64,000 nucleotides of DNA, taken from assembly GCF_044647545.1 (NCBI RefSeq), contig NZ_CP172818.1; one strand, given 5' to 3'. Both the position numbers and the translations under genes were made by a program. The DNA is from Escherichia coli. GTDB lineage: Bacteria; Pseudomonadota; Gammaproteobacteria; Enterobacterales; Enterobacteriaceae. A model generated the notes under the pieces. The model made no database searches and was not told the origin of the DNA. It was given only the letters and a program-made list of their open reading frames with translations. Each line of letters begins with the position of its first letter. Position 1 is the stretch's first letter. This document shows, piece after piece, positions 8,872 to 64,000 of the stretch.

Positions 8872-8901
8872 TTAACCATTCCCATACAATTAGTTAACCA
8901 A

Positions 8902-8934
8902 AAAGGGGGGATTTTATCTCCCCTTTAATTTTTC
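8902..8934 (+). terminator. Rho-independent terminator after clpX
   Basis: AAGGGGGGA...TCCCCTT hairpin followed by T-rich tract. Confidence 0.65.
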
Positions 8935-8948
8935 CTCTATTCTCGGCG

Positions 8949-8976
8949 TTGAATGTGGGGGAAACATCCCCATATA
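8949..8976 (+). promoter_or_regulatory. sigma32 heat-shock promoter of lon
   Basis: GTTGAATG (-35 like) ... CCCCATATA (-10 like) with correct spacing; matches sigma32 consensus. Confidence 0.7.
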
Positions 8977-9058
8977 CTGACGTACATGTTAATAGATGGC
9001 GTGAAGCACAGTCGTGTCATCTGATTACCTGGCGGAAATTAAACTAAGAGAGAGCTCT

Positions 9059-15794: not shown

Positions 15795-17495
15795 TCATTG
15801 CGACGGCGCGGGAAGCCAGGCTTCGGTAAATTCAAACCAGCCGCGCGGTGTCAGTCGCACACCGTTCACGCCGGGAGGGGCGCTAATGCGATAGTGATAG
15901 TTGAACAGCGGCGTCAGCGTCGCATCTGCCATTAACTGGCTAAAAACCGCTTTCAGGGCATTAAATCGGTTTTCCTCATCAGGCATTACTTGCACCGCGT
16001 CCAGTGTCGATTGCAAATGTGCATATGCTGGAGCGTCGAAAACATGTGGCCACAGTGGATCGCAACGCAGCCATTGCTCCAGGGTATATTCCGGTGCTTC
16101 GCCAATTAATCTGTCGCCCATCATGAGGTCTGCGTGTGCCAGTAGGGTCGTGTCGTCCCAGTTTTTTGCGTTATGAAAAATAATTGTAAGTTCACAGCCT
16201 TCCGCTGCCAGTGTCGCCTGTAGACGTTCTGCCATGGTATGAAGTTCTATCGGTAGGTGATAAACCAGCGTCAAGGTTTTCGGTAGTTTGACCTCATCCG
16301 GTACTTGCCATTGCGGAATAGTCCAGCCTGGCAGTAATGCATGACTGGCGGTGATCAGGTTTTCTCCGACTTCTAACGTTTGTAATAAACCGGATTGATG
16401 AATAATGGAGATCACTTTTCGCGCCTGCCAGAGGGACAGTCGGGGACTTTTGCGCAACGTTAAATAGCAAAAACCTAAACTGATGCCACTACTGACCTGG
16501 CTGACCCGTTGCAGCTCCTCCGGTTTGCCGATGGTGATTTGCACGGGATGCCGACAACTGGTTCCCAAATCTTTTTCGAAAAGCGGCGGAGTTATCCAGT
16601 ACTCAACCGCTTTAAGCAGCGGATGACGTAAATGGTAATAATCATGGCTTTCCAGGCGCACCAGCTCCGCTGTGAATTGTGTTAAGCGAAAAGGACCCGT
16701 GCCGATCAGTGGGAATTGCGGATGCGCCAGATGGCTGCAATAGCTCGCCAGCCGGTGCGCAAGCCAGTAATCAGGGCGATGTAAAAAGAAGGTCAGACAC
16801 TGCGGATGGGTGACTTCAATACGCTTCACGCTAATAAATAATTGATCCACTGCTGGCAGTTGTAACAGCATCAATAATCGCTGGTGTAAGTGTGAGGCTT
16901 TTACTGCATCGCCGTTATGCCAGTGTAGGGTTGAACGAAGATAAAAGTCCCAGCGTAACCCGTCAGTAGAGGTTTCCCAGTGATGCGCTAAATCGCCAAT
17001 CGGGCGCTGGGTATTATTATCGAAGCGGGTCAGGCCGGAAAATATCTGCCCGGCCAGATGCTGCTCGGCACGGCCGGGCAAAAAGCCCGGTTGTAGCGGT
17101 TCGAGCGGGCGATAGTAGGGAATACGCAACGTGGGCGTATCGTTTTGCCATTGTCCGCCCATAAACGGCTGTAACAGAGTGCGCAGCTCACCTGGGGCCA
17201 GTTGCGCCAGCTCCAGCACATCTTGCTGCTTTCCGGTTTCCAGCGCCTGTTCCATCATCGCATTGCGTAGCGATTCTGGCGTGACCAGAAAGCGTAATTG
17301 TCCGCGCTTTCCGCGTCCTGACTGCGCCTGCCACTCCAGCCATCCCGCCTCCTGTGCCTGGCGTAACAGCGTACGAACATGGCGTTCGCTGCAAAAACAG
17401 CGTTCGGCCAGTTCGCTGACTGTGACGGTTTGCGGCTTTCCGGCGGAAGGTTGCCACAGACGTTGATACTGGTTAAGACGGTTGAGCAGTCGCAT
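15795..17495 (-). CDS. ybaE: SgrR-family protein: N-terminal winged-HTH plus C-terminal solute-binding-protein-like domain (function unknown)
   Basis: 566 aa from ATG at 17493-17495 (MRLLNRLNQYQRL...); track ORF starts 5 codons upstream at a TTG. Confidence 0.88.
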   Translation of the reverse strand: MRLLNRLNQYQRLWQPSAGKPQTVTVSELAERCFCSERHVRTLLRQAQEAGWLEWQAQSGRGKRGQLRFLVTPESLRNAMMEQALETGKQQDVLELAQLAPGELRTLLQPFMGGQWQNDTPTLRIPYYRPLEPLQPGFLPGRAEQHLAGQIFSGLTRFDNNTQRPIGDLAHHWETSTDGLRWDFYLRSTLHWHNGDAVKASHLHQRLLMLLQLPAVDQLFISVKRIEVTHPQCLTFFLHRPDYWLAHRLASYCSHLAHPQFPLIGTGPFRLTQFTAELVRLESHDYYHLRHPLLKAVEYWITPPLFEKDLGTSCRHPVQITIGKPEELQRVSQVSSGISLGFCYLTLRKSPRLSLWQARKVISIIHQSGLLQTLEVGENLITASHALLPGWTIPQWQVPDEVKLPKTLTLVYHLPIELHTMAERLQATLAAEGCELTIIFHNAKNWDDTTLLAHADLMMGDRLIGEAPEYTLEQWLRCDPLWPHVFDAPAYAHLQSTLDAVQVMPDEENRFNALKAVFSQLMADATLTPLFNYHYRISAPPGVNGVRLTPRGWFEFTEAWLPAPSQ

Positions 17496-26630: not shown

Positions 26631-26744
26631 GGGGGCTCTGTTGGTTCTCCCGCAACGCTACTCTGTTTACCAGGTCAGGTCCGGAAGGAAGCAGCCAAGG
26701 CAGATGACGCGTGTGCCGGGATGTAGCTGGCAGGGCCCCCACCC
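26631..26744 (+). ncRNA. ffs: 4.5S RNA (signal recognition particle RNA)
   Basis: 114 nt GGGGGCTCTGTTGGTTCTCCCGCAACGC...GGCAGGGCCCCCACCC matches the E. coli SRP RNA as I recall it; lies in the atl-ybaA intergenic region. Confidence 0.93.
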
Positions 26745-42102: not shown

Positions 42103-44034
42103 ATGAGTTATCAGGTCTTAGCCCGAAAATGGCGCCCACAAACCTTTGCTGACGTCGTCGGCCAGGAACATGTGCTGACCGCACTGGCGAACGGCTTGTC
42201 GTTAGGGCGTATTCATCATGCTTATCTTTTTTCCGGTACCCGTGGCGTCGGAAAAACCTCTATCGCCCGACTGCTGGCGAAGGGGCTAAACTGCGAAACC
42301 GGCATTACCGCGACGCCGTGCGGCGTGTGCGATAACTGTCGTGAAATCGAGCAGGGGCGCTTTGTCGATCTGATTGAAATCGACGCCGCCTCGCGTACCA
42401 AAGTCGAAGATACCCGCGACCTGCTGGATAACGTCCAGTACGCTCCGGCGCGTGGTCGTTTCAAAGTTTATCTCATCGACGAAGTGCATATGCTGTCGCG
42501 TCACAGCTTTAACGCACTGTTAAAAACCCTTGAAGAGCCGCCAGAGCACGTTAAGTTTTTGCTGGCGACGACCGATCCACAGAAATTGCCGGTGACGATT
42601 TTGTCACGCTGTTTGCAATTTCATCTCAAGGCGCTGGATGTCGAGCAAATTCGCCATCAGCTTGAGCACATCCTCAACGAAGAACATATCGCTCACGAGC
42701 CGCGGGCGTTGCAATTACTGGCGCGCGCCGCTGAAGGCAGCCTGCGAGATGCCTTAAGTCTGACCGACCAGGCGATTGCCAGCGGTGACGGCCAGGTTTC
42801 AACCCAGGCGGTCAGTGCGATGCTGGGTACGCTTGACGACGATCAGGCGCTGTCGCTGGTTGAAGCGATGGTCGAGGCCAACGGCGAGCGCGTAATGGCG
42901 CTGATTAATGAAGCCGCTGCCCGTGGTATCGAGTGGGAAGCGTTGCTGGTGGAAATGCTCGGCCTGTTGCATCGTATTGCGATGGTACAACTTTCGCCTG
43001 CTGCACTTGGCAACGACATGGCCGCCATCGAGCTGCGGATGCGTGAACTGGCGCGCACCATACCGCCGACGGATATTCAGCTTTACTATCAGACGCTGTT
43101 GATTGGTCGCAAAGAATTACCGTATGCGCCGGACCGCCGTATGGGCGTTGAGATGACGCTTCTGCGCGCGCTGGCGTTCCATCCACGTATGCCGCTGCCT
43201 GAGCCAGAAGTGCCACGCCAGTCCTTTGCGCCCGTCGCGCCAACGGCAGTAATGACGCCAACCCAGGTGCCGCCGCAACCGCAATCAGCGCCGCAGCAGG
43301 CACCGACTGTACCGCTCCCGGAAACCACCAGCCAGGTGCTGGCGGCGCGCAAGCAGTTGCAGCGCGTGCAGGGAGCAACCAAAGCAAAAAAGAGTGAACC
43401 GGCAGCCGCTACCCGCGCGCGGCCGGTGAATAACGCTGCGCTGGAAAGACTGGCTTCGGTCACCGATCGCGTTCAGGCGCGCCCGGTGCCATCGGCGCTG
43501 GAAAAAGCGCCAGCCAAAAAAGAAGCGTATCGCTGGAAGGCGACCACTCCAGTGATGCAGCAAAAAGAAGTGGTCGCCACGCCGAAGGCGCTGAAAAAAG
43601 CGCTGGAACATGAAAAAACGCCGGAACTGGCGGCGAAGCTGGCGGCAGAAGCCATTGAGCGCGACCCGTGGGCGGCTCAGGTGAGTCAACTTTCGCTACC
43701 AAAACTGGTCGAACAGGTGGCGTTAAATGCCTGGAAAGAGGAGAGCGACAACGCAGTATGTCTGCATTTGCGCTCCTCTCAGCGGCATTTGAACAACCGC
43801 GGCGCACAGCAAAAACTGGCTGAAGCGTTGAGCACGTTAAAAGGTTCAACGGTTGAACTGACTATCGTTGAAGATGATAATCCCGCGGTGCGTACGCCGC
43901 TGGAATGGCGTCAGGCGATATACGAAGAAAAACTTGCGCAGGCGCGCGAGTCCATTATTGCGGATAATAATATTCAGACCCTGCGTCGATTCTTCGATGC
44001 GGAGCTGGATGAAGAAAGTATCCGCCCCATTTGA
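42103..44034 (+). CDS. dnaX: DNA polymerase III subunits tau (full length) and gamma (via -1 frameshift)
   Basis: 643 aa; AAA+ clamp-loader motifs (GTRGVGKTS); the slippery heptamer inside the ORF is listed separately. Confidence 0.97.
   Translation: MSYQVLARKWRPQTFADVVGQEHVLTALANGLSLGRIHHAYLFSGTRGVGKTSIARLLAKGLNCETGITATPCGVCDNCREIEQGRFVDLIEIDAASRTKVEDTRDLLDNVQYAPARGRFKVYLIDEVHMLSRHSFNALLKTLEEPPEHVKFLLATTDPQKLPVTILSRCLQFHLKALDVEQIRHQLEHILNEEHIAHEPRALQLLARAAEGSLRDALSLTDQAIASGDGQVSTQAVSAMLGTLDDDQALSLVEAMVEANGERVMALINEAAARGIEWEALLVEMLGLLHRIAMVQLSPAALGNDMAAIELRMRELARTIPPTDIQLYYQTLLIGRKELPYAPDRRMGVEMTLLRALAFHPRMPLPEPEVPRQSFAPVAPTAVMTPTQVPPQPQSAPQQAPTVPLPETTSQVLAARKQLQRVQGATKAKKSEPAAATRARPVNNAALERLASVTDRVQARPVPSALEKAPAKKEAYRWKATTPVMQQKEVVATPKALKKALEHEKTPELAAKLAAEAIERDPWAAQVSQLSLPKLVEQVALNAWKEESDNAVCLHLRSSQRHLNNRGAQQKLAEALSTLKGSTVELTIVEDDNPAVRTPLEWRQAIYEEKLAQARESIIADNNIQTLRRFFDAELDEESIRPI
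43386..43397 (+). promoter_or_regulatory. dnaX programmed -1 ribosomal frameshift site (A AAA AAG) with -1 frame stop
   Basis: A_AAA_AAG at 43386-43392 in the correct register of the dnaX frame (codons GCA AAA AAG); -1 frame reads AAA AAA GAG TGA; GC-rich structured region immediately downstream. Confidence 0.85.
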
Positions 44035-57051: not shown

Positions 57052-57135
57052 ACACCGTCGCTTAAAGTGACGGCATAATAATAAAAAAATGAAATTCCTC
57101 TTTGACGGGCCAATAGCGATATTGGCCATTTTTTT
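57052..57135 (+). ncRNA. chiX: ChiX small regulatory RNA (Hfq-dependent; MicM/SroB)
   Basis: 84 nt ACACCGTCGCTTAAAGTGACGGCATAATAATAAAAAAATGAAATTCCTCTTTGACGGGCCAATAGCGATATTGGCCATTTTTTT, 5' hairpin plus intrinsic terminator; matches ChiX as I recall it; in the ybaK-ybaP gap. Confidence 0.88.
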
Positions 57136-57928: not shown

Positions 57929-58186
57929 ACGACCTCCCTTTGTGAAATATCATGCTAGCGCGCGGGGAGGGATGGCGCAAATGGAGTTGTTGTCGCACTT
58001 GTGCACAGTGCTTGTGTGCATTACAATAATTAAACAATGGACAAGGAGATGAGAATGGAATGGCTCAAAAGAATAATATAAGGAGTTTTCGTGATCCTGC
58101 TGGCTGATTTTTTTTTCCATTCAACCCCACATCAAAAAATCCCTCTAAAATCCATACCACTTATCACAAAAGTGGACATCATTAAT

Positions 58187-58346
58187 CCCCCCCCTTCTCT
58201 CCGTTTTCCCCCCCCCCCGAAACGAAAAAAAAAGTTTTGGAAAAAAAAAGAAATTTCCCCAAAAAAAAAAAAAAAAAAAAAAAAAAATAAAAAAGGGAAA
58301 AAAAAAAAGGAAAAAAAATTTTTTTAAAAAAAAAAAAAAAAAAAAA
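58187..58346. repeat. Homopolymer-rich low-complexity block (C8, C11, A9, A9, A27, A11, A8, T7, A21) upstream of ybaQ
   Basis: Directly visible in the sequence; composition unlike any other part of the window. See findings. Confidence 0.95.
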
Positions 58347-58379
58347 CATAGCTGTCGTATTGACGAGAAAGGTAAAACC

Positions 58380-58759: not shown

Positions 58760-61264
58760 TTATTCCTTCGGTTTAAATCGCAGCAATCGGTTGGCGTTAC
58801 TCACTACGGTAATCGACGAGAGCGCCATTGCCGCTCCGGCAACCACCGGGTTAAGCAGCGTACCGGTGAACGGCCACAAAATACCGGCGGCGACCGGAAT
58901 ACCAATGCTGTTGTAGATAAACGCACCGAGCAGGTTCTGCTTCATATTGCGCAGCGTTGCGCGGGAAATCGCGAGCGCATCTGCAACACCCATCAGGCTA
59001 TGGCGCATCAGGGTAATCGCCGCGGTTTCAATGGCAACATCACTGCCGCCACCCATCGCAATACCGACATCCGCCTGAGCCAGCGCTGGCGCGTCGTTAA
59101 TGCCGTCGCCCACCATTGCCACCTGACGTCCTTCACTTTGCAGACGTTTGATCGCTTCGGCTTTACCGTCCGGTAGCACCCCGGCTATCACCTCATCAAT
59201 CCCTGCTTCTTTGGCGATCGCATTGGCGGTGGTTGGGTTATCCCCGGTTAGCATCACCAGACGATATCCCGCTTTATGCAGGCGTTGCAGCGCCGCCACG
59301 CTATCACTACGCAACGGATCGCGTACAGCCAGCAGGGCTACCGCTTTCCCGTCAACCGCCAGCAGCACAGGCGTTGCCCCTTGCGATGCCTGAGCTGAAA
59401 TATCTGCCTCAATCGCTTTAGTATCAACTTGCTGGTCATTTAACAGCGCCTGATTACCCAGCAATAACGCATGACCTTCAGCTTCACCGCTCACGCCCAG
59501 CCCGCGCAATGTGCGGAAACCGTTGACCTGCGGCAGCTGCATATCACCTGCTTTATCGAGGATCGCTCGTGCCAGCGGATGGCTGGAACCTTGCTCCAGT
59601 GCCGCCGCCAGACGCAATGCCTGCGCTTCATCAACATCAGCAAACGTTTTCACTGCGACAACCTGCGGCTTCCCTTCGGTCAGCGTCCCGGTTTTATCGA
59701 ACACGACGGTGTCGAGCGTACTGGCGCGTTGCAGCGCGTCAGCGTCCCGCACCAGCACGCCAAACTCAGCCGCCCGCCCGACGCCCGAAATAATCGACAT
59801 CGGCGTCGCCAGTCCCAGCGCACACGGACAGGCAATAATCAGCACCGTGGTGGCAATCACCAGGGTATAGACAATTTGCGGTGCCGGACCAAAGAAATAC
59901 CAGATTGCCGCACTGACAAGCGCAATAACCACTACTACCGGCACAAATACGGCTGAGATTTTATCCGCCAGTTGACCGATTTCTGGCTTGCTGCTCTGGG
60001 CCTGTCGCACCATGCGAATGATCCGTGACAGCGTAGTATGGCTGCCGACCGCACTGGCGCGAAACAGCACACTGCCGTCCTGTACCACTGTCCCGGCATG
60101 GACGCTATCGCCTTCGCCTTTTTGCTGCGGGATTGGTTCGCCCGTCAGCATCGCTTCATCCAGCCACGCTTCGCCCTGGGTAATTTCACCATCTACCGGC
60201 ACCCGATCACCCGTCGTCAGGCGCAGCAACATACCTGGCTGAACATCTGCCAGCGGCACGTTTTTTTCACCTTCGTTGGTGACCAGGCGCGCCGTCGGTG
60301 GGGTTAAATCGAGTAATTTCTCCAGCGCCTTAGAAGAACGCTGACGTGCGCGCGCTTCCAGCATATGACCGAGATTAATCAGACCGATAATCATCGCACT
60401 GGCTTCATAGTAAAGATGTCGCGCTTCCATCGGGAACCACTGCGGCCACAGGTTGACGCTCATTGAATAGAGCCACGCCACGCCCGTACCCAGCGCCACC
60501 AGCGTATCCATCGTCGCTGCACCGTTCAGCAGGCTTTTCCATGCGCTGCGGTAAAAATGGCCGCCGGCGAAAACCATTACCGCCAGGGTTATCAGGCCGA
60601 TAACCAACCACAGGCTGCGGTTGTCGGCGGTGACCATCATGTTATCGCCGATCATCCCCCAGACCATCACCGGGATACCCACCGCCAGTGCGACAATCGC
60701 CTGCCAGCGGAAGCGCTTCATCGTAGCGACGGCGGTTTCTTGCTGGCGCTCGCGGCGTTTAGCGTCATCTTCAATCGCTTCCGCGCCGTAGCCCGCTTTT
60801 TCCACCGCCTGCACTAAATCTTGTGGGGAGGCACTGCCCATCACCAGCGCAGTACGCTCCGCCAGGTTTACCCGTGCCTGAGTGACGCCCGGTACGCTTT
60901 GCAACGCATTTTGTACGCGGGTGACACAGCTGGCGCAGCTCATGCCGCTCAGCAGCAACTGCTGGCTGTCATCGTCATCGGCGGTCGCTGCCGGAAGCGC
61001 CTCAGAAACCGCTGTCAGTGCTTCCGACGGGATTGATGACTCCGCCAGCGGTTTAGCCTTTGGGTGGCTTACAGATGCGTCATAACCCGCTTGTTTGATG
61101 GTTTCGATCAGCTGTTCTGCACTGGCAGTCCCGGTAACGTGCGCTTCAGTGACAGACACATCCGCCTGCTCAACATCCGGGCGCTGTTCGAGACTTTCTT
61201 TCACGCGTTTAACGCAGTGACCGCAGGACAGGCCGTCCAGGGTCAGGTCGATAGTTTGTGACAT
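58760..61264 (-). CDS. copA: Cu(I)-exporting P1B-type ATPase
   Basis: 834 aa; two N-terminal CxxC metal-binding domains (GLSCGHC, GMSCASC), CPC in TM6, DKTGT phosphorylation motif. Confidence 0.97.
61057..61063 (-). promoter_or_regulatory. Candidate copA programmed -1 frameshift heptamer (C CCA AAG) yielding the CopA(Z) chaperone
   Basis: Minus-strand CCCAAAG at codons His-Pro-Lys (HPKAKPL), about codon 69-70, directly after the first metal-binding domain; placement follows the published CopA(Z) frameshift as I recall it. Confidence 0.6.
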
Positions 61265-61303
61265 AAAACACTCCTTTTAAGACAGTTTTGACTGGCTGTG
61301 ATA

Positions 61304-61334
61304 AAGGTTAAACCTTCCAGCAAGGGGAAGGTCA
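61304..61334 (-). promoter_or_regulatory. copA promoter with CueR box (MerR-type, 19-bp spacer)
   Basis: Minus strand reads TTGACC-N19-TAACCT; the spacer contains the dyad CCTTCC-N7-GGAAGG (61312-61330). Confidence 0.85.
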
Positions 61335-61526
61335 AGAAATTAATAAACCAGGCGGGTAAAAGTACGTAAAGATTAAAAAATCGGCTCGATTTGCATCAGG
61401 ATTAGACATTTATCTCTTTGTTTTCCTGTAGTTAAGTTGCGGGTGCTAAGTTAAATCAGGATGCCTGAAAATTGGCACCGGGGTGAGGAATTACCTCCCG
61501 CATCTATAAAAAGGAGTTAACAAAAG

Positions 61527-62459
61527 ATGTTAGATGCAAACAAATTACAGCAGGCAGTGGATCAGGCTTACACCCAATTTCACTCACTTAACGGCGGACA
61601 AAATGCCGACTACATTCCCTTTCTGGCGAATGTACCTGGTCAACTGGCAGCAGTGGCTATTGTGACCTGCGATGGCAACATCTATCGCGCGGGTGATAGT
61701 GATTACCGCTTTGCGCTGGAATCCATCTCGAAAGTCTGTACGTTAGCCCTTGCGTTAGAAGATGTCGGCCCGCAGGCGGTACAGGACAAAATTGGCGCTG
61801 ACCCGACCGGATTGCCCTTTAACTCAGTTATCGCCTTAGAGTTGCATGGCGGCAAACCGCTGTCGCCACTGGTAAATGCTGGCGCTATTGCCACCACCAG
61901 CCTGATTAACGCTGAAAATACTGAACAACGCTGGCAGCGAATTTTACATATCCAACAACAACTGGCTGGTGAGCAGGTAGCGCTCTCTGACGAAGTCAAC
62001 CAGTCGGAACAAACAACCAACTTCCATAACCGGGCCATTGCCTGGCTGCTGTACTCCGCCGGATATCTCTATTGTGATGCAATGGAAGCCTGTGACGTGT
62101 ACACCCGTCAGTGCTCCACGCTCATCAATACTGTTGAACTGGCAACGCTTGGCGCGACGCTGGCGGCGGGTGGTGTGAATCCGCTGACGCATAAACGCGT
62201 TCTTCAGGCCGACAACGTGCCGTACATTCTGGCTGAAATGATGATGGAAGGGCTGTATGGTCGCTCCGGTGACTGGGCGTATCGCGTTGGTTTACCGGGC
62301 AAAAGCGGTGTAGGTGGCGGTATTCTGGCGGTCGTCCCTGGCGTGATGGGAATTGCCGCGTTCTCACCACCGCTGGACGAAGAAGGCAACAGTGTTCGCG
62401 GTCAAAAAATGGTGGCATCGGTCGCTAATCAACTCGGCTATAACGTGTTTAAGGGCTGA
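61527..62459 (+). CDS. glsA: Glutaminase 1
   Basis: 310 aa serine-dependent glutaminase ORF recognised as GlsA/YbaS. Confidence 0.95.
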   Translation: MLDANKLQQAVDQAYTQFHSLNGGQNADYIPFLANVPGQLAAVAIVTCDGNIYRAGDSDYRFALESISKVCTLALALEDVGPQAVQDKIGADPTGLPFNSVIALELHGGKPLSPLVNAGAIATTSLINAENTEQRWQRILHIQQQLAGEQVALSDEVNQSEQTTNFHNRAIAWLLYSAGYLYCDAMEACDVYTRQCSTLINTVELATLGATLAAGGVNPLTHKRVLQADNVPYILAEMMMEGLYGRSGDWAYRVGLPGKSGVGGGILAVVPGVMGIAAFSPPLDEEGNSVRGQKMVASVANQLGYNVFKG

Positions 62460-62461
62460 TC

Positions 62462-63754
62462 ATGATGAACACGGAAGGTAATAACGATAACAAACCCCTC
62501 GGTCTATGGAACGTCGTTTCCATCGGTATTGGGGCAATGGTGGGGGCGGGGATCTTCGCGCTGCTGGGGCAGGCTGCGTTGCTAATGGAAGCCTCGACCT
62601 GGGTCGCCTTTGCTTTTGGCGGTATTGTGGCGATGTTTTCCGGTTATGCCTATGCGCGCCTGGGGGCGAGCTATCCCAGCAATGGCGGTATTATCGACTT
62701 CTTTCGTCGCGGATTAGGCAACGGCGTCTTTTCGCTGGCACTCTCGTTATTGTACCTGTTGACGCTGGCGGTGAGCATCGCCATGGTCGCCCGTGCTTTT
62801 GGCGCTTATGCCGTGCAGTTTTTGCATGAAGGCAGTCAGGAGGAGCACCTTATATTGCTCTACGCGTTGGGGATCATTGCGGTGATGACGCTTTTCAACT
62901 CCTTAAGCAACCATGCGGTAGGGCGGCTGGAAGTGATCCTCGTCGGCATTAAAATGATGATCCTGTTATTGCTGATCATTGCCGGTGTCTGGTCGCTGCA
63001 ACCGGCGCATATTTCCGTCTCTGCGCCCCCCAGCTCCGGTGCGTTCTTCTCCTGTATCGGGATAACCTTCCTTGCCTATGCGGGCTTTGGCATGATGGCG
63101 AACGCGGCGGATAAAGTGAAAGATCCGCAGGTCATTATGCCACGGGCGTTTCTGGTGGCGATTGGCGTTACCACGTTGCTTTATATCTCGCTGGCGCTGG
63201 TTTTGCTTAGCGATGTATCGGCATTAGAGTTAGAAAAATATGCCGATACCGCCGTAGCGCAGGCAGCTTCTCCGCTGCTCGGGCATGTGGGTTATGTGAT
63301 CGTCGTCATCGGCGCTTTACTGGCGACGGCTTCAGCCATCAACGCGAACCTGTTCGCCGTGTTTAACATCATGGACAACATGGGCAGCGAACGCGAACTG
63401 CCGAAGCTAATGAATAAATCCCTGTGGCGGCAGAGTACCTGGGGCAACATCATTGTCGTGGTGCTGATTATGCTGATGACGGCGGCGCTGAATTTAGGCT
63501 CACTCGCCAGCGTTGCCAGCACCACCTTTTTGATCTGCTATCTGGCGGTGTTTGTGGTGGCGATCCGCCTACGTCATGATATTCACGCCTCGTTGCCGAT
63601 TCTTATCGTTGGTACGTTGGTGATGTTGTTGGTGATCGTTGGCTTTATCTACAGCCTGTGGTCCCAGGGCAGCCGTGCGTTGATATGGATTATTGGTGCA
63701 ATCTTACTCAGCCTTATTGTGGCAATGGTCATGAAGCGCAATAAAACCGTATAA
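62462..63754 (+). CDS. ybaT: APC-superfamily amino acid transporter (putative)
   Basis: 430 aa, about 12 TM segments; starts 3 nt after the glsA stop (operon). Confidence 0.92.
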   Translation: MMNTEGNNDNKPLGLWNVVSIGIGAMVGAGIFALLGQAALLMEASTWVAFAFGGIVAMFSGYAYARLGASYPSNGGIIDFFRRGLGNGVFSLALSLLYLLTLAVSIAMVARAFGAYAVQFLHEGSQEEHLILLYALGIIAVMTLFNSLSNHAVGRLEVILVGIKMMILLLLIIAGVWSLQPAHISVSAPPSSGAFFSCIGITFLAYAGFGMMANAADKVKDPQVIMPRAFLVAIGVTTLLYISLALVLLSDVSALELEKYADTAVAQAASPLLGHVGYVIVVIGALLATASAINANLFAVFNIMDNMGSERELPKLMNKSLWRQSTWGNIIVVVLIMLMTAALNLGSLASVASTTFLICYLAVFVVAIRLRHDIHASLPILIVGTLVMLLVIVGFIYSLWSQGSRALIWIIGAILLSLIVAMVMKRNKTV

Positions 63755-63878
63755 CATCTCTCTGTGCGCAGTACTTCCTGTATTATTGTGGTGGCGGTCG
63801 ATATTCGCACTGGCAAAAAAACGTGCTTGAATATTTGTTGAAACCCTTTAACAAAGCACAGGAGGCGTTGCGCGAACG

Positions 63879-64000
63879 ATGAACATTAGCGATGTAGCAA
63901 AAATTACCGGCCTGACCAGCAAAGCCATTCGCTTCTATGAAGAGAAGGGGCTGGTGACGCCGCCGATGCGCAGCGAAAACGGTTATCGCACCTACACGCA
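63879..64000 (+). CDS. cueR: MerR-family copper-responsive regulator CueR, N-terminal part (continues beyond window end)
   Basis: [40 protein letters not shown], a MerR-type HTH; truncated by the window edge. Confidence 0.9.

Follow-up and report, generated by a model that had tools for sequence, protein, structure and literature searches.

A canonical CueR-dependent copA promoter and a probably rearranged gene order at the copA-glsA-ybaT-cueR locus of Escherichia coli

Overview

The copA-glsA-ybaT-cueR locus of Escherichia coli, taken here from a 64,000-nucleotide stretch of chromosomal DNA that was analysed as a whole (hereafter designated the window), is best explained by a canonical CueR-dependent copA promoter (PcopA), a separate glsA-ybaT unit that is linked to copper through metabolism, and a gene order that probably goes back to an ancestral copA/cueR divergon; we give this reading as a whole a probability of about 0.9. 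Both the mechanism and the structures of PcopA and CueR have already been worked out in full; they rank among the best-characterised metal-responsive promoter systems and carry little weight as a discovery, and their use here is that of a positive control, in which a true regulatory site was recovered to the base from raw sequence. The order of copA, glsA-ybaT and cueR and the cross-talk between copper and acid have likewise been discussed in publications since 2006, with tests from 2017 onwards. The interleaving of copper and acid/glutamine functions to which an earlier note on this DNA drew attention is real, but it had already been published.

Gene content and layout of the locus

The four genes were identified with NCBIfam and Pfam models, as compiled in Table 1 together with the promoter elements. 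The calls and their order agree with those of the earlier note and match the RefSeq annotation (copA, glsA, ybaT, cueR) of an identical locus.

Table 1 Positions of the genes, intergenic regions and promoter elements at the copA-cueR locus (numbering of the window).
Feature	Position	Strand	Evidence or remark
copA, Cu(I)-exporting P1B-type ATPase, 834 aa	58760-61264	minus	NCBIfam equivalog NF007952, 1747.6 bits (cutoff 1316)
Slippery heptamer C_CCA_AAG for the copA -1 frameshift	61058-61064	minus	Product, 70-aa CopA(Z) chaperone
Divergent copA-glsA intergenic region, 262 bp	61265-61526		PcopA at the copA end; glsA promoter region at ~61368-61478
PcopA -10 hexamer TAACCT	61310-61305	minus	Read from the sequence and located by script
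PcopA spacer TTCCCCTTGCTGGAAGGTT	61329-61311	minus	19 bp, between TTGACC and TAACCT
CueR box, perfect inverted repeat CCTTCC-N7-GGAAGG (CCTTCC-AGCAAGG-GGAAGG)	61313-61331		
PcopA -35 hexamer TTGACC	61335-61330	minus	Read from the sequence and located by script
glsA (ybaS), glutaminase A, 310 aa	61527-62459	plus	NCBIfam NF009020, 562.4 bits (cutoff 395)
ybaT, APC-family amino-acid permease, 430 aa	62462-63754	plus	Pfam AA_permease_2, 107.9 bits
ybaT-cueR spacer, 124 bp	63755-63878	plus	
cueR, first 40 codons (MerR-type HTH), then end of the window	63879-64000	plus	Pfam MerR, 61.3 bits

The CopA polypeptide contains N-terminal CxxC motifs at C14 and C110, the CPC motif at position 479, DKTGT at 523 and GDGIND at 719, and the combination of N-terminal CxxC domains, a membrane CPC and a DKTGT phosphorylation site is that of a P1B-1 copper ATPase. 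Past the slippery heptamer, the -1 frame of copA reads P-K-G-stop, and at the corresponding place the annotation of K-12 MG1655 has a joined coding sequence for a 'soluble Cu(+) chaperone'. The -1 frameshift in copA and its product CopA(Z) are reportedly to be attributed to Meydan et al. 2017. GlsA scores above the cutoff of the glutaminase A equivalog, which is the protein-level mark of the GlsA/YbaS of glutamine-dependent acid resistance (AR2_Q), and reaches 360 bits against the Pfam Glutaminase model. YbaT reaches the cutoff of none of the named NCBIfam transporter models, and its substrate is described as still unsettled (PMC6250119).

The window holds 40 codons of cueR, and the full regulator was therefore read from an E. 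coli locus (L001) that is 100% identical over 61000-64000. CueR residues 1-40 in the window are identical to those of the full-length protein of L001, which scores 308 bits against the CueR equivalog (cutoff 244) and carries the metal ligands C112 and C120. The ATG codons of copA and cueR lie 2615 bp apart, and 2557 bp separate the centre of the CueR box from the cueR ATG. The stretch 61000-64000 recurs with 100% identity in several complete E. coli genomes, and the locus is present in 5422/5426; the copA-glsA intergenic region is at least 95% identical in the same number (5422 of the 5426 complete genomes). The locus is part of the core E. coli chromosome.

An Rfam search of 61304-64000 returned no structured RNA or RNA family match. 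A 'hypothetical protein' pseudogene placed by PGAP across the cueR start (63785-63882) was rejected, as its translation is interrupted by an in-frame stop and contains nothing recognisable.

Architecture of the copA promoter and the CueR box

The PcopA hexamers lie 19 bp apart, as in the MerR class of promoters (19-20 bp versus 17 bp), and a dyad-symmetric operator occupies the interval between them, overlapping the -35 hexamer by 2 bp. The MerR-type architecture that had been read from the letters was borne out; the core of PcopA (the -35 hexamer, 19-bp spacer, box, -10 hexamer and their offsets) is base-for-base identical to that of K-12 MG1655. The earlier note had also placed a perfect CCTTCC-N7-GGAAGG dyad inside the spacer. 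The dyad is perfect and unique in the window, but it is not confined to the spacer, since the outer arm runs over the two final bases of the -35 hexamer, and the inner arm stops 2 bp short of the -10 hexamer. The same geometry of box and hexamers has been published for wild-type PcopA, where the core CueR site is CCTTCC-N7-GGAAGG, the spacer is 19 bp long and 2 bp separate the box from the -10 hexamer (PMC8169799). The dyad can be extended to 7+7 bp (ACCTTCC/GGAAGGT, 61312-61332), and the box is also identical in E. albertii.

The core of the box has 0 mismatches and occurs as one exact copy in the 64-kb window, against a chance expectation of about 0.004 (64000/4^12). When up to two mismatches were allowed, the scan of the window gave four matches against 1.68 expected; the three imperfect ones, all with two mismatches, are at chance level. 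A standard promoter scan with spacers of 16-18 bp does not report PcopA, as is expected from its over-long spacer.

The earlier note had let the assignment stand or fall with binding of the dyad by CueR in vitro and with a change in copper induction upon deletion of cueR. Published tests in K-12 favour the assignment on both points: as cited in PMC8169799 and PMC5329002, CueR binding in vitro and cueR-dependent copper induction were reported by Outten 2000, Stoyanov 2001 and Petersen & Moller 2000, and the classic cueR-dependent copper assay with PcopA-lacZ is described in PMC5329002. No evidence contrary to the promoter assignment was found.

The mechanism at this promoter is inferred from what has been published for K-12, where the sequence is identical. 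A CueR dimer would occupy CCTTCC-N7-GGAAGG between hexamers whose 19-bp separation is 2 bp above the optimum, and Cu(I)-CueR would bend and under-twist the spacer, bringing both hexamers within reach of RNA polymerase with sigma-70, whereupon copA, together with its frameshift product CopA(Z), would be transcribed; when copper is absent, CueR would keep PcopA in a poor conformation. CueR is represented in the PDB both alone and in complexes (1Q05, 4WLW, 4WLS, 6LDI, 7C17, 6XH7 and 6XH8), the last four of these entries being activation complexes with RNA polymerase. Entries 4WLW and 4WLS are CueR-DNA complexes, and bending has been seen by cryo-EM; in the published mechanism, the CueR dimer bends and under-twists the spacer, which lets the sigma-70 holoenzyme read the two hexamers, and there is an auxiliary contact to the non-conserved region of sigma (PMC8169799).

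History of the copA/cueR junction

For comparison across species, one genome per species was scanned for TTGACCTTCC-N7-GGAAGGT, which yielded at least 120 loci, a sample biased to promoters that match this pattern. At 55 or more of the at least 120 loci, all from other species, the motif faces a CopA homologue whose start lies within 900 nt. As judged by tblastn with the proteins of the window, also over at least 120 loci, a CopA homologue is present at 63 or more, a CueR/MerR homologue at 71 or more, one or the other at 94 or more and neither at 26 or more. The search pattern fixed the -35 hexamer and the box only, the -10 hexamer and the 19-bp spacing not being imposed, and among the matches listed a TAnnCT -10 element stands at exactly 19-bp spacing in 16 of 16 Enterobacterales promoters (15 fetched loci and L001, in this region identical to the window).

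The position of cueR relative to this promoter varies. The distance from the outer edge of the -35 hexamer to the start of cueR is 9-11 nt in six tight divergons among the matches listed (Superficieibacter, two Enterobacter genomes, Pantoea sp. IMH, Erwinia persicina and Photorhabdus cinerea), in which the ribosome-binding site of cueR abuts the hexamer. At so short a distance, the cueR promoter of these species must overlap PcopA, as in mer operons. Adjacency to glsA was seen, besides E. coli, only in E. albertii among the matches listed. The same matches include Citrobacter sp. FP75, with heme-uptake and hut genes at the copA-upstream junction, C. werkmanii, with an argH-like (argininosuccinate lyase) gene at this junction, and Rahnella bruchi, in which WtpA/WtpB-like ABC transporter genes lie between cueR and copA.

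These arrangements suggest that a tight back-to-back copA/cueR divergon, its two genes flanking the box, was probably the original state in Enterobacterales, a direction of change that is read from gene order. The junction appears to have taken insertions repeatedly, with glsA-ybaT as the presumable filler in the Escherichia lineage, as far as the biased sample represents the order. Arrival of glsA-ybaT at the ancestral junction in this lineage would have moved cueR 2.6 kb away. As to composition, glsA-ybaT has a G+C content of 0.52-0.57, like its neighbours, and a foreign origin judged by this measure was set aside as a candidate; the similarity speaks neither for nor against an insertion.

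Regulation of glsA-ybaT and its link to copper

The pair between copA and cueR had been described in the earlier note as unrelated to copper, which conflicts with published data. According to PMC10903455, PMC9628877 and PMC6250119, Djoko et al. 2017 (PNAS 114:6818) reported that ybaST is induced by copper and is needed for the rescue by glutamine from copper stress at low pH. The rationale given for this rescue is the inactivation by copper of glutamate synthase (GOGAT), an Fe-S enzyme that is bypassed by YbaST (PMC10903455). Moreover, Kim et al. 2022 found that deletion of ybaST causes copper sensitivity, that deletion of cueR causes acid sensitivity and that acid induces cueR, copA and cueO together with ybaST (PMC9628877). 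The link of glsA-ybaT to copper is reported to be metabolic and not via CueR, the glutaminase supplying glutamate when copper inactivates glutamate synthase, especially at low pH.

It has also to be considered that glsA-ybaT came to lie between copA and cueR as a neutral insertion at a permissive junction, with no selected meaning for copper handling, a reading close to the 'unrelated' of the earlier note. Such an event would fit the different unrelated genes at the copA-upstream junction of other Enterobacterales (among the matches listed) and the acid-stress regulators that the glsA promoter has of its own (PMC4918353), but we regard it as unlikely in view of the published phenotypes, in which copper tolerance depends on ybaST and acid survival on cueR (PMC9628877, PMC10903455). 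Given these phenotypes, the gene products can hardly be called functionally unrelated, whatever the origin of the adjacency. Fixation of the arrangement in 5422/5426 E. coli genomes may also be held against neutrality, although the same is expected of any old neutral insertion.

In the preferred reading, glsA-ybaT is a separate divergent transcription unit, whose own promoter lies deeper in the intergenic region and is reportedly bound by acid-stress regulators. The ybaS promoter fragment has been located between 159 and 49 bp ahead of the start codon (PMC6250119), and Seo et al. 2015 reported binding of GadW, GadX and RpoS to the ybaS promoter (PMC4918353). The earlier note had proposed a search upstream of glsA for a second CueR box or some other operator. 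A second CueR box did not turn up: the best other CueR site in both intergenic regions has 5/12 mismatches, and no promoter with a 19-bp spacer facing glsA was found in the copA-glsA intergenic region. A GadE-type GAD box before glsA, for which TCAGGATTAGACATTTAT had been considered by its resemblance to the eye, was rejected; the best ungapped match has 9/20 mismatches, which is the background level.

It is highly improbable that the single CueR box works in both directions, with CueR directly activating glsA-ybaT and, by read-through, cueR as a four-gene CueR regulon, even though copA and glsA share one intergenic region, ybaST transcription reportedly rises with copper (PMC9628877, PMC10903455) and Permina et al. 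2006, who described the four-gene locus, proposed ybaS and ybaT by comparative genomics as possible members of the CueR regulon and predicted a ybaS-ybaT-ybbI operon (PMC1526738); the box centre lies 205 bp before the glsA ATG and outside the -159 to -49 promoter fragment (PMC6250119), MerR-type activators remodel the spacer of that promoter in which their own operator lies (PMC8169799), neither a second box nor a 19-bp-spacer promoter faces glsA, and, according to a 2024 review, the copper regulation of ybaST has no direct connection with CueR (PMC10903455).

Transcription of cueR

Within the ybaT-cueR spacer, pattern scans of the plus strand found neither a terminator-like hairpin nor a consensus sigma-70 promoter, and the predicted RNA fold of the spacer is no more stable than that of shuffled sequence (z = 0.10). 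The absence of a terminator and a promoter between ybaT and cueR is weak evidence, because consensus scans of this kind are insensitive. Tentatively, cueR of Escherichia would have lost the overlapping divergent promoter of other Enterobacterales when glsA-ybaT came to the junction, and may in part be read through from the GadX/GadW/RpoS-dependent glsA promoter, so that acid raises CueR; we rate this as possible, at clearly less than even odds. If true, it would explain at the level of transcription why acid reportedly induces cueR, copA and cueO and why the cueR deletion is acid-sensitive. Apart from the operon predicted in 2006 (PMC1526738), we found no paper in the literature that names or tests such a read-through transcript. 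Co-transcription of cueR with the acid-induced glsA-ybaT would bear, in a small way, on how E. coli couples its defences against acid and copper, stresses that are reported to interact.

Comparison with known systems

The closest known system is PcopA/CueR of E. coli K-12 (the cue regulon), in which the promoter elements, their offsets and the gene order copA-glsA-ybaT-cueR are all the same as in the window. The two differ at the strain level: on the copA side, by an indel of 1 nt within the leader of copA and two SNPs upstream of glsA, and on the cueR side, by one SNP in the ybaT-cueR spacer and one synonymous change in cueR. The mer systems of Tn21/Tn501, whose MerR is the archetype of the family, likewise have a dyad operator within an over-long 19-bp spacer and are activated by DNA distortion. 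In mer operons, merR is divergent from merT, whereas cueR of E. coli is not divergent from its target and lies 2.6 kb off behind two genes; the metal specificities also differ, CueR responding to Cu(I)/Ag(I)/Au(I) and mer to Hg(II). The copA-cueR divergon of other Enterobacterales has the same promoter as the window (TTGACC, the box, 19 bp and TAnnCT) and differs from it, among the matches listed, in having cueR 9-11 nt outside the -35 hexamer and in being without glsA-ybaT; a copA-cueR divergon without ybaS/ybaT has also been described in Salmonella (PMC1526738). With cueR divergent from copA across a short region, the arrangement in these other Enterobacterales resembles that of merR and merT.

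CueR-like boxes and copA-upstream junctions in other genomes

In the one-genome-per-species scan for the extended CueR-box motif, the motif TTGACCTTCC-N7-GGAAGGT (17 specified bases) was found, among the matches listed, about 50–110 nt upstream of MerR-family genes in loci from Clostridia/Bacillota (L002, L007, L009, L018, L021, L023, L024, L026, L037, L045, L048, L066, and others), with numerous genomes of Oscillospiraceae, Lachnospiraceae, and Faecalibacterium showing this arrangement. The MerR-family proteins encoded there were 28–44% identical to CueR in the N-terminal part, and no CopA homologue was present in the fetched DNA of these loci, among the matches listed. These observations suggest that in Firmicutes a CueR-like operator may serve a different MerR-family regulator, possibly an autoregulated one.

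Among the matches listed from Enterobacterales, the gene content of the copA-upstream junction varied, as exemplified by Rahnella bruchi, Citrobacter sp. FP75, and C. werkmanii (table). In the window, E. coli and E. albertii differ strongly over a patch of about 30 bp immediately outside the -35 element of the copA promoter, with both flanks conserved. Because cueR begins at this very position in other genera, the patch may be a scar of the rearrangement.

Features in the window and in scanned loci (window positions unless a locus is named)
Feature	Position	Strand	Remark
WtpA/WtpB-like ABC transporter genes, Rahnella bruchi	L034 6400-8150		cueR on one side, copA on the other
Heme ABC/HutX/HutW cluster, Citrobacter sp. 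FP75	L044 6200-10500		copA-upstream junction
Argininosuccinate lyase gene, C. werkmanii	L012 1000-2400		copA-upstream junction
Diverged patch	61341-61372		outside copA promoter -35
Annotated hypothetical protein	63785-63882	+	overlaps cueR start
Extra block in L001	9291-11743		between cueR and ybbJ
Homopolymer-rich stretch	58095-58347		between ybaP and ybaQ/higA
Closest GAD-box match	16459-16478	-	3/20 mismatches
sraA sRNA	8892-8987	-	Rfam
SRP RNA	26639-26735	+	Rfam
dnaX frameshift element	43367-43431	+	Rfam
sroB/ChiX sRNA	57052-57135	+	Rfam; between ybaK and ybaP
Slippery heptamer C_CCA_AAG	61058-61064	-	copA codons 67-69

Annotation around cueR and the stretch between ybaP and ybaQ/higA

The RefSeq entry "frameshifted, incomplete hypothetical protein" at the cueR start is apparently spurious, its translation containing an in-frame stop. 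Past the window end, the strain of L001, the E. coli locus identical to the window over 61000-64000, carries an extra block encoding hypothetical proteins and a YadA-family adhesin, which is absent from K-12.

Long homopolymer runs (A27, A21, C11, and others) were observed between ybaP and ybaQ/higA. Sequence comparison showed this stretch to be collinear with the gene for a RelE/ParE (HigB-type) toxin in strain FDAARGOS_497, the identity dropping gradually and then returning to 100% at about 58345. The homopolymer version occurred in none of the 5426 complete RefSeq E. coli genomes searched (top match, 83%), and at least 80% coverage of the query was reached in only 81 of them, suggesting that few strains have the toxin gene at this site; K-12 is without it. 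The stretch has the look of a toxin ORF degraded on purpose or of a sequence artefact, not of biology.

GAD-box match, RNA elements, and the copA frameshift site

Of all sites in the window, TTAGGTTTTTGCTATTTAAC came nearest to the GadE "GAD box" consensus. Window-wide Rfam matches at the gathering score comprised sraA, SRP RNA, the dnaX element, and sroB/ChiX, all expected features of E. coli; no Rfam family matched the frameshift site inside copA. After the slippery heptamer at this site, the -1 frame reads PKG followed by a stop. The heptamer is the known programmed frameshift producing the CopA(Z) copper chaperone, for which the K-12 annotation has a joined CDS.
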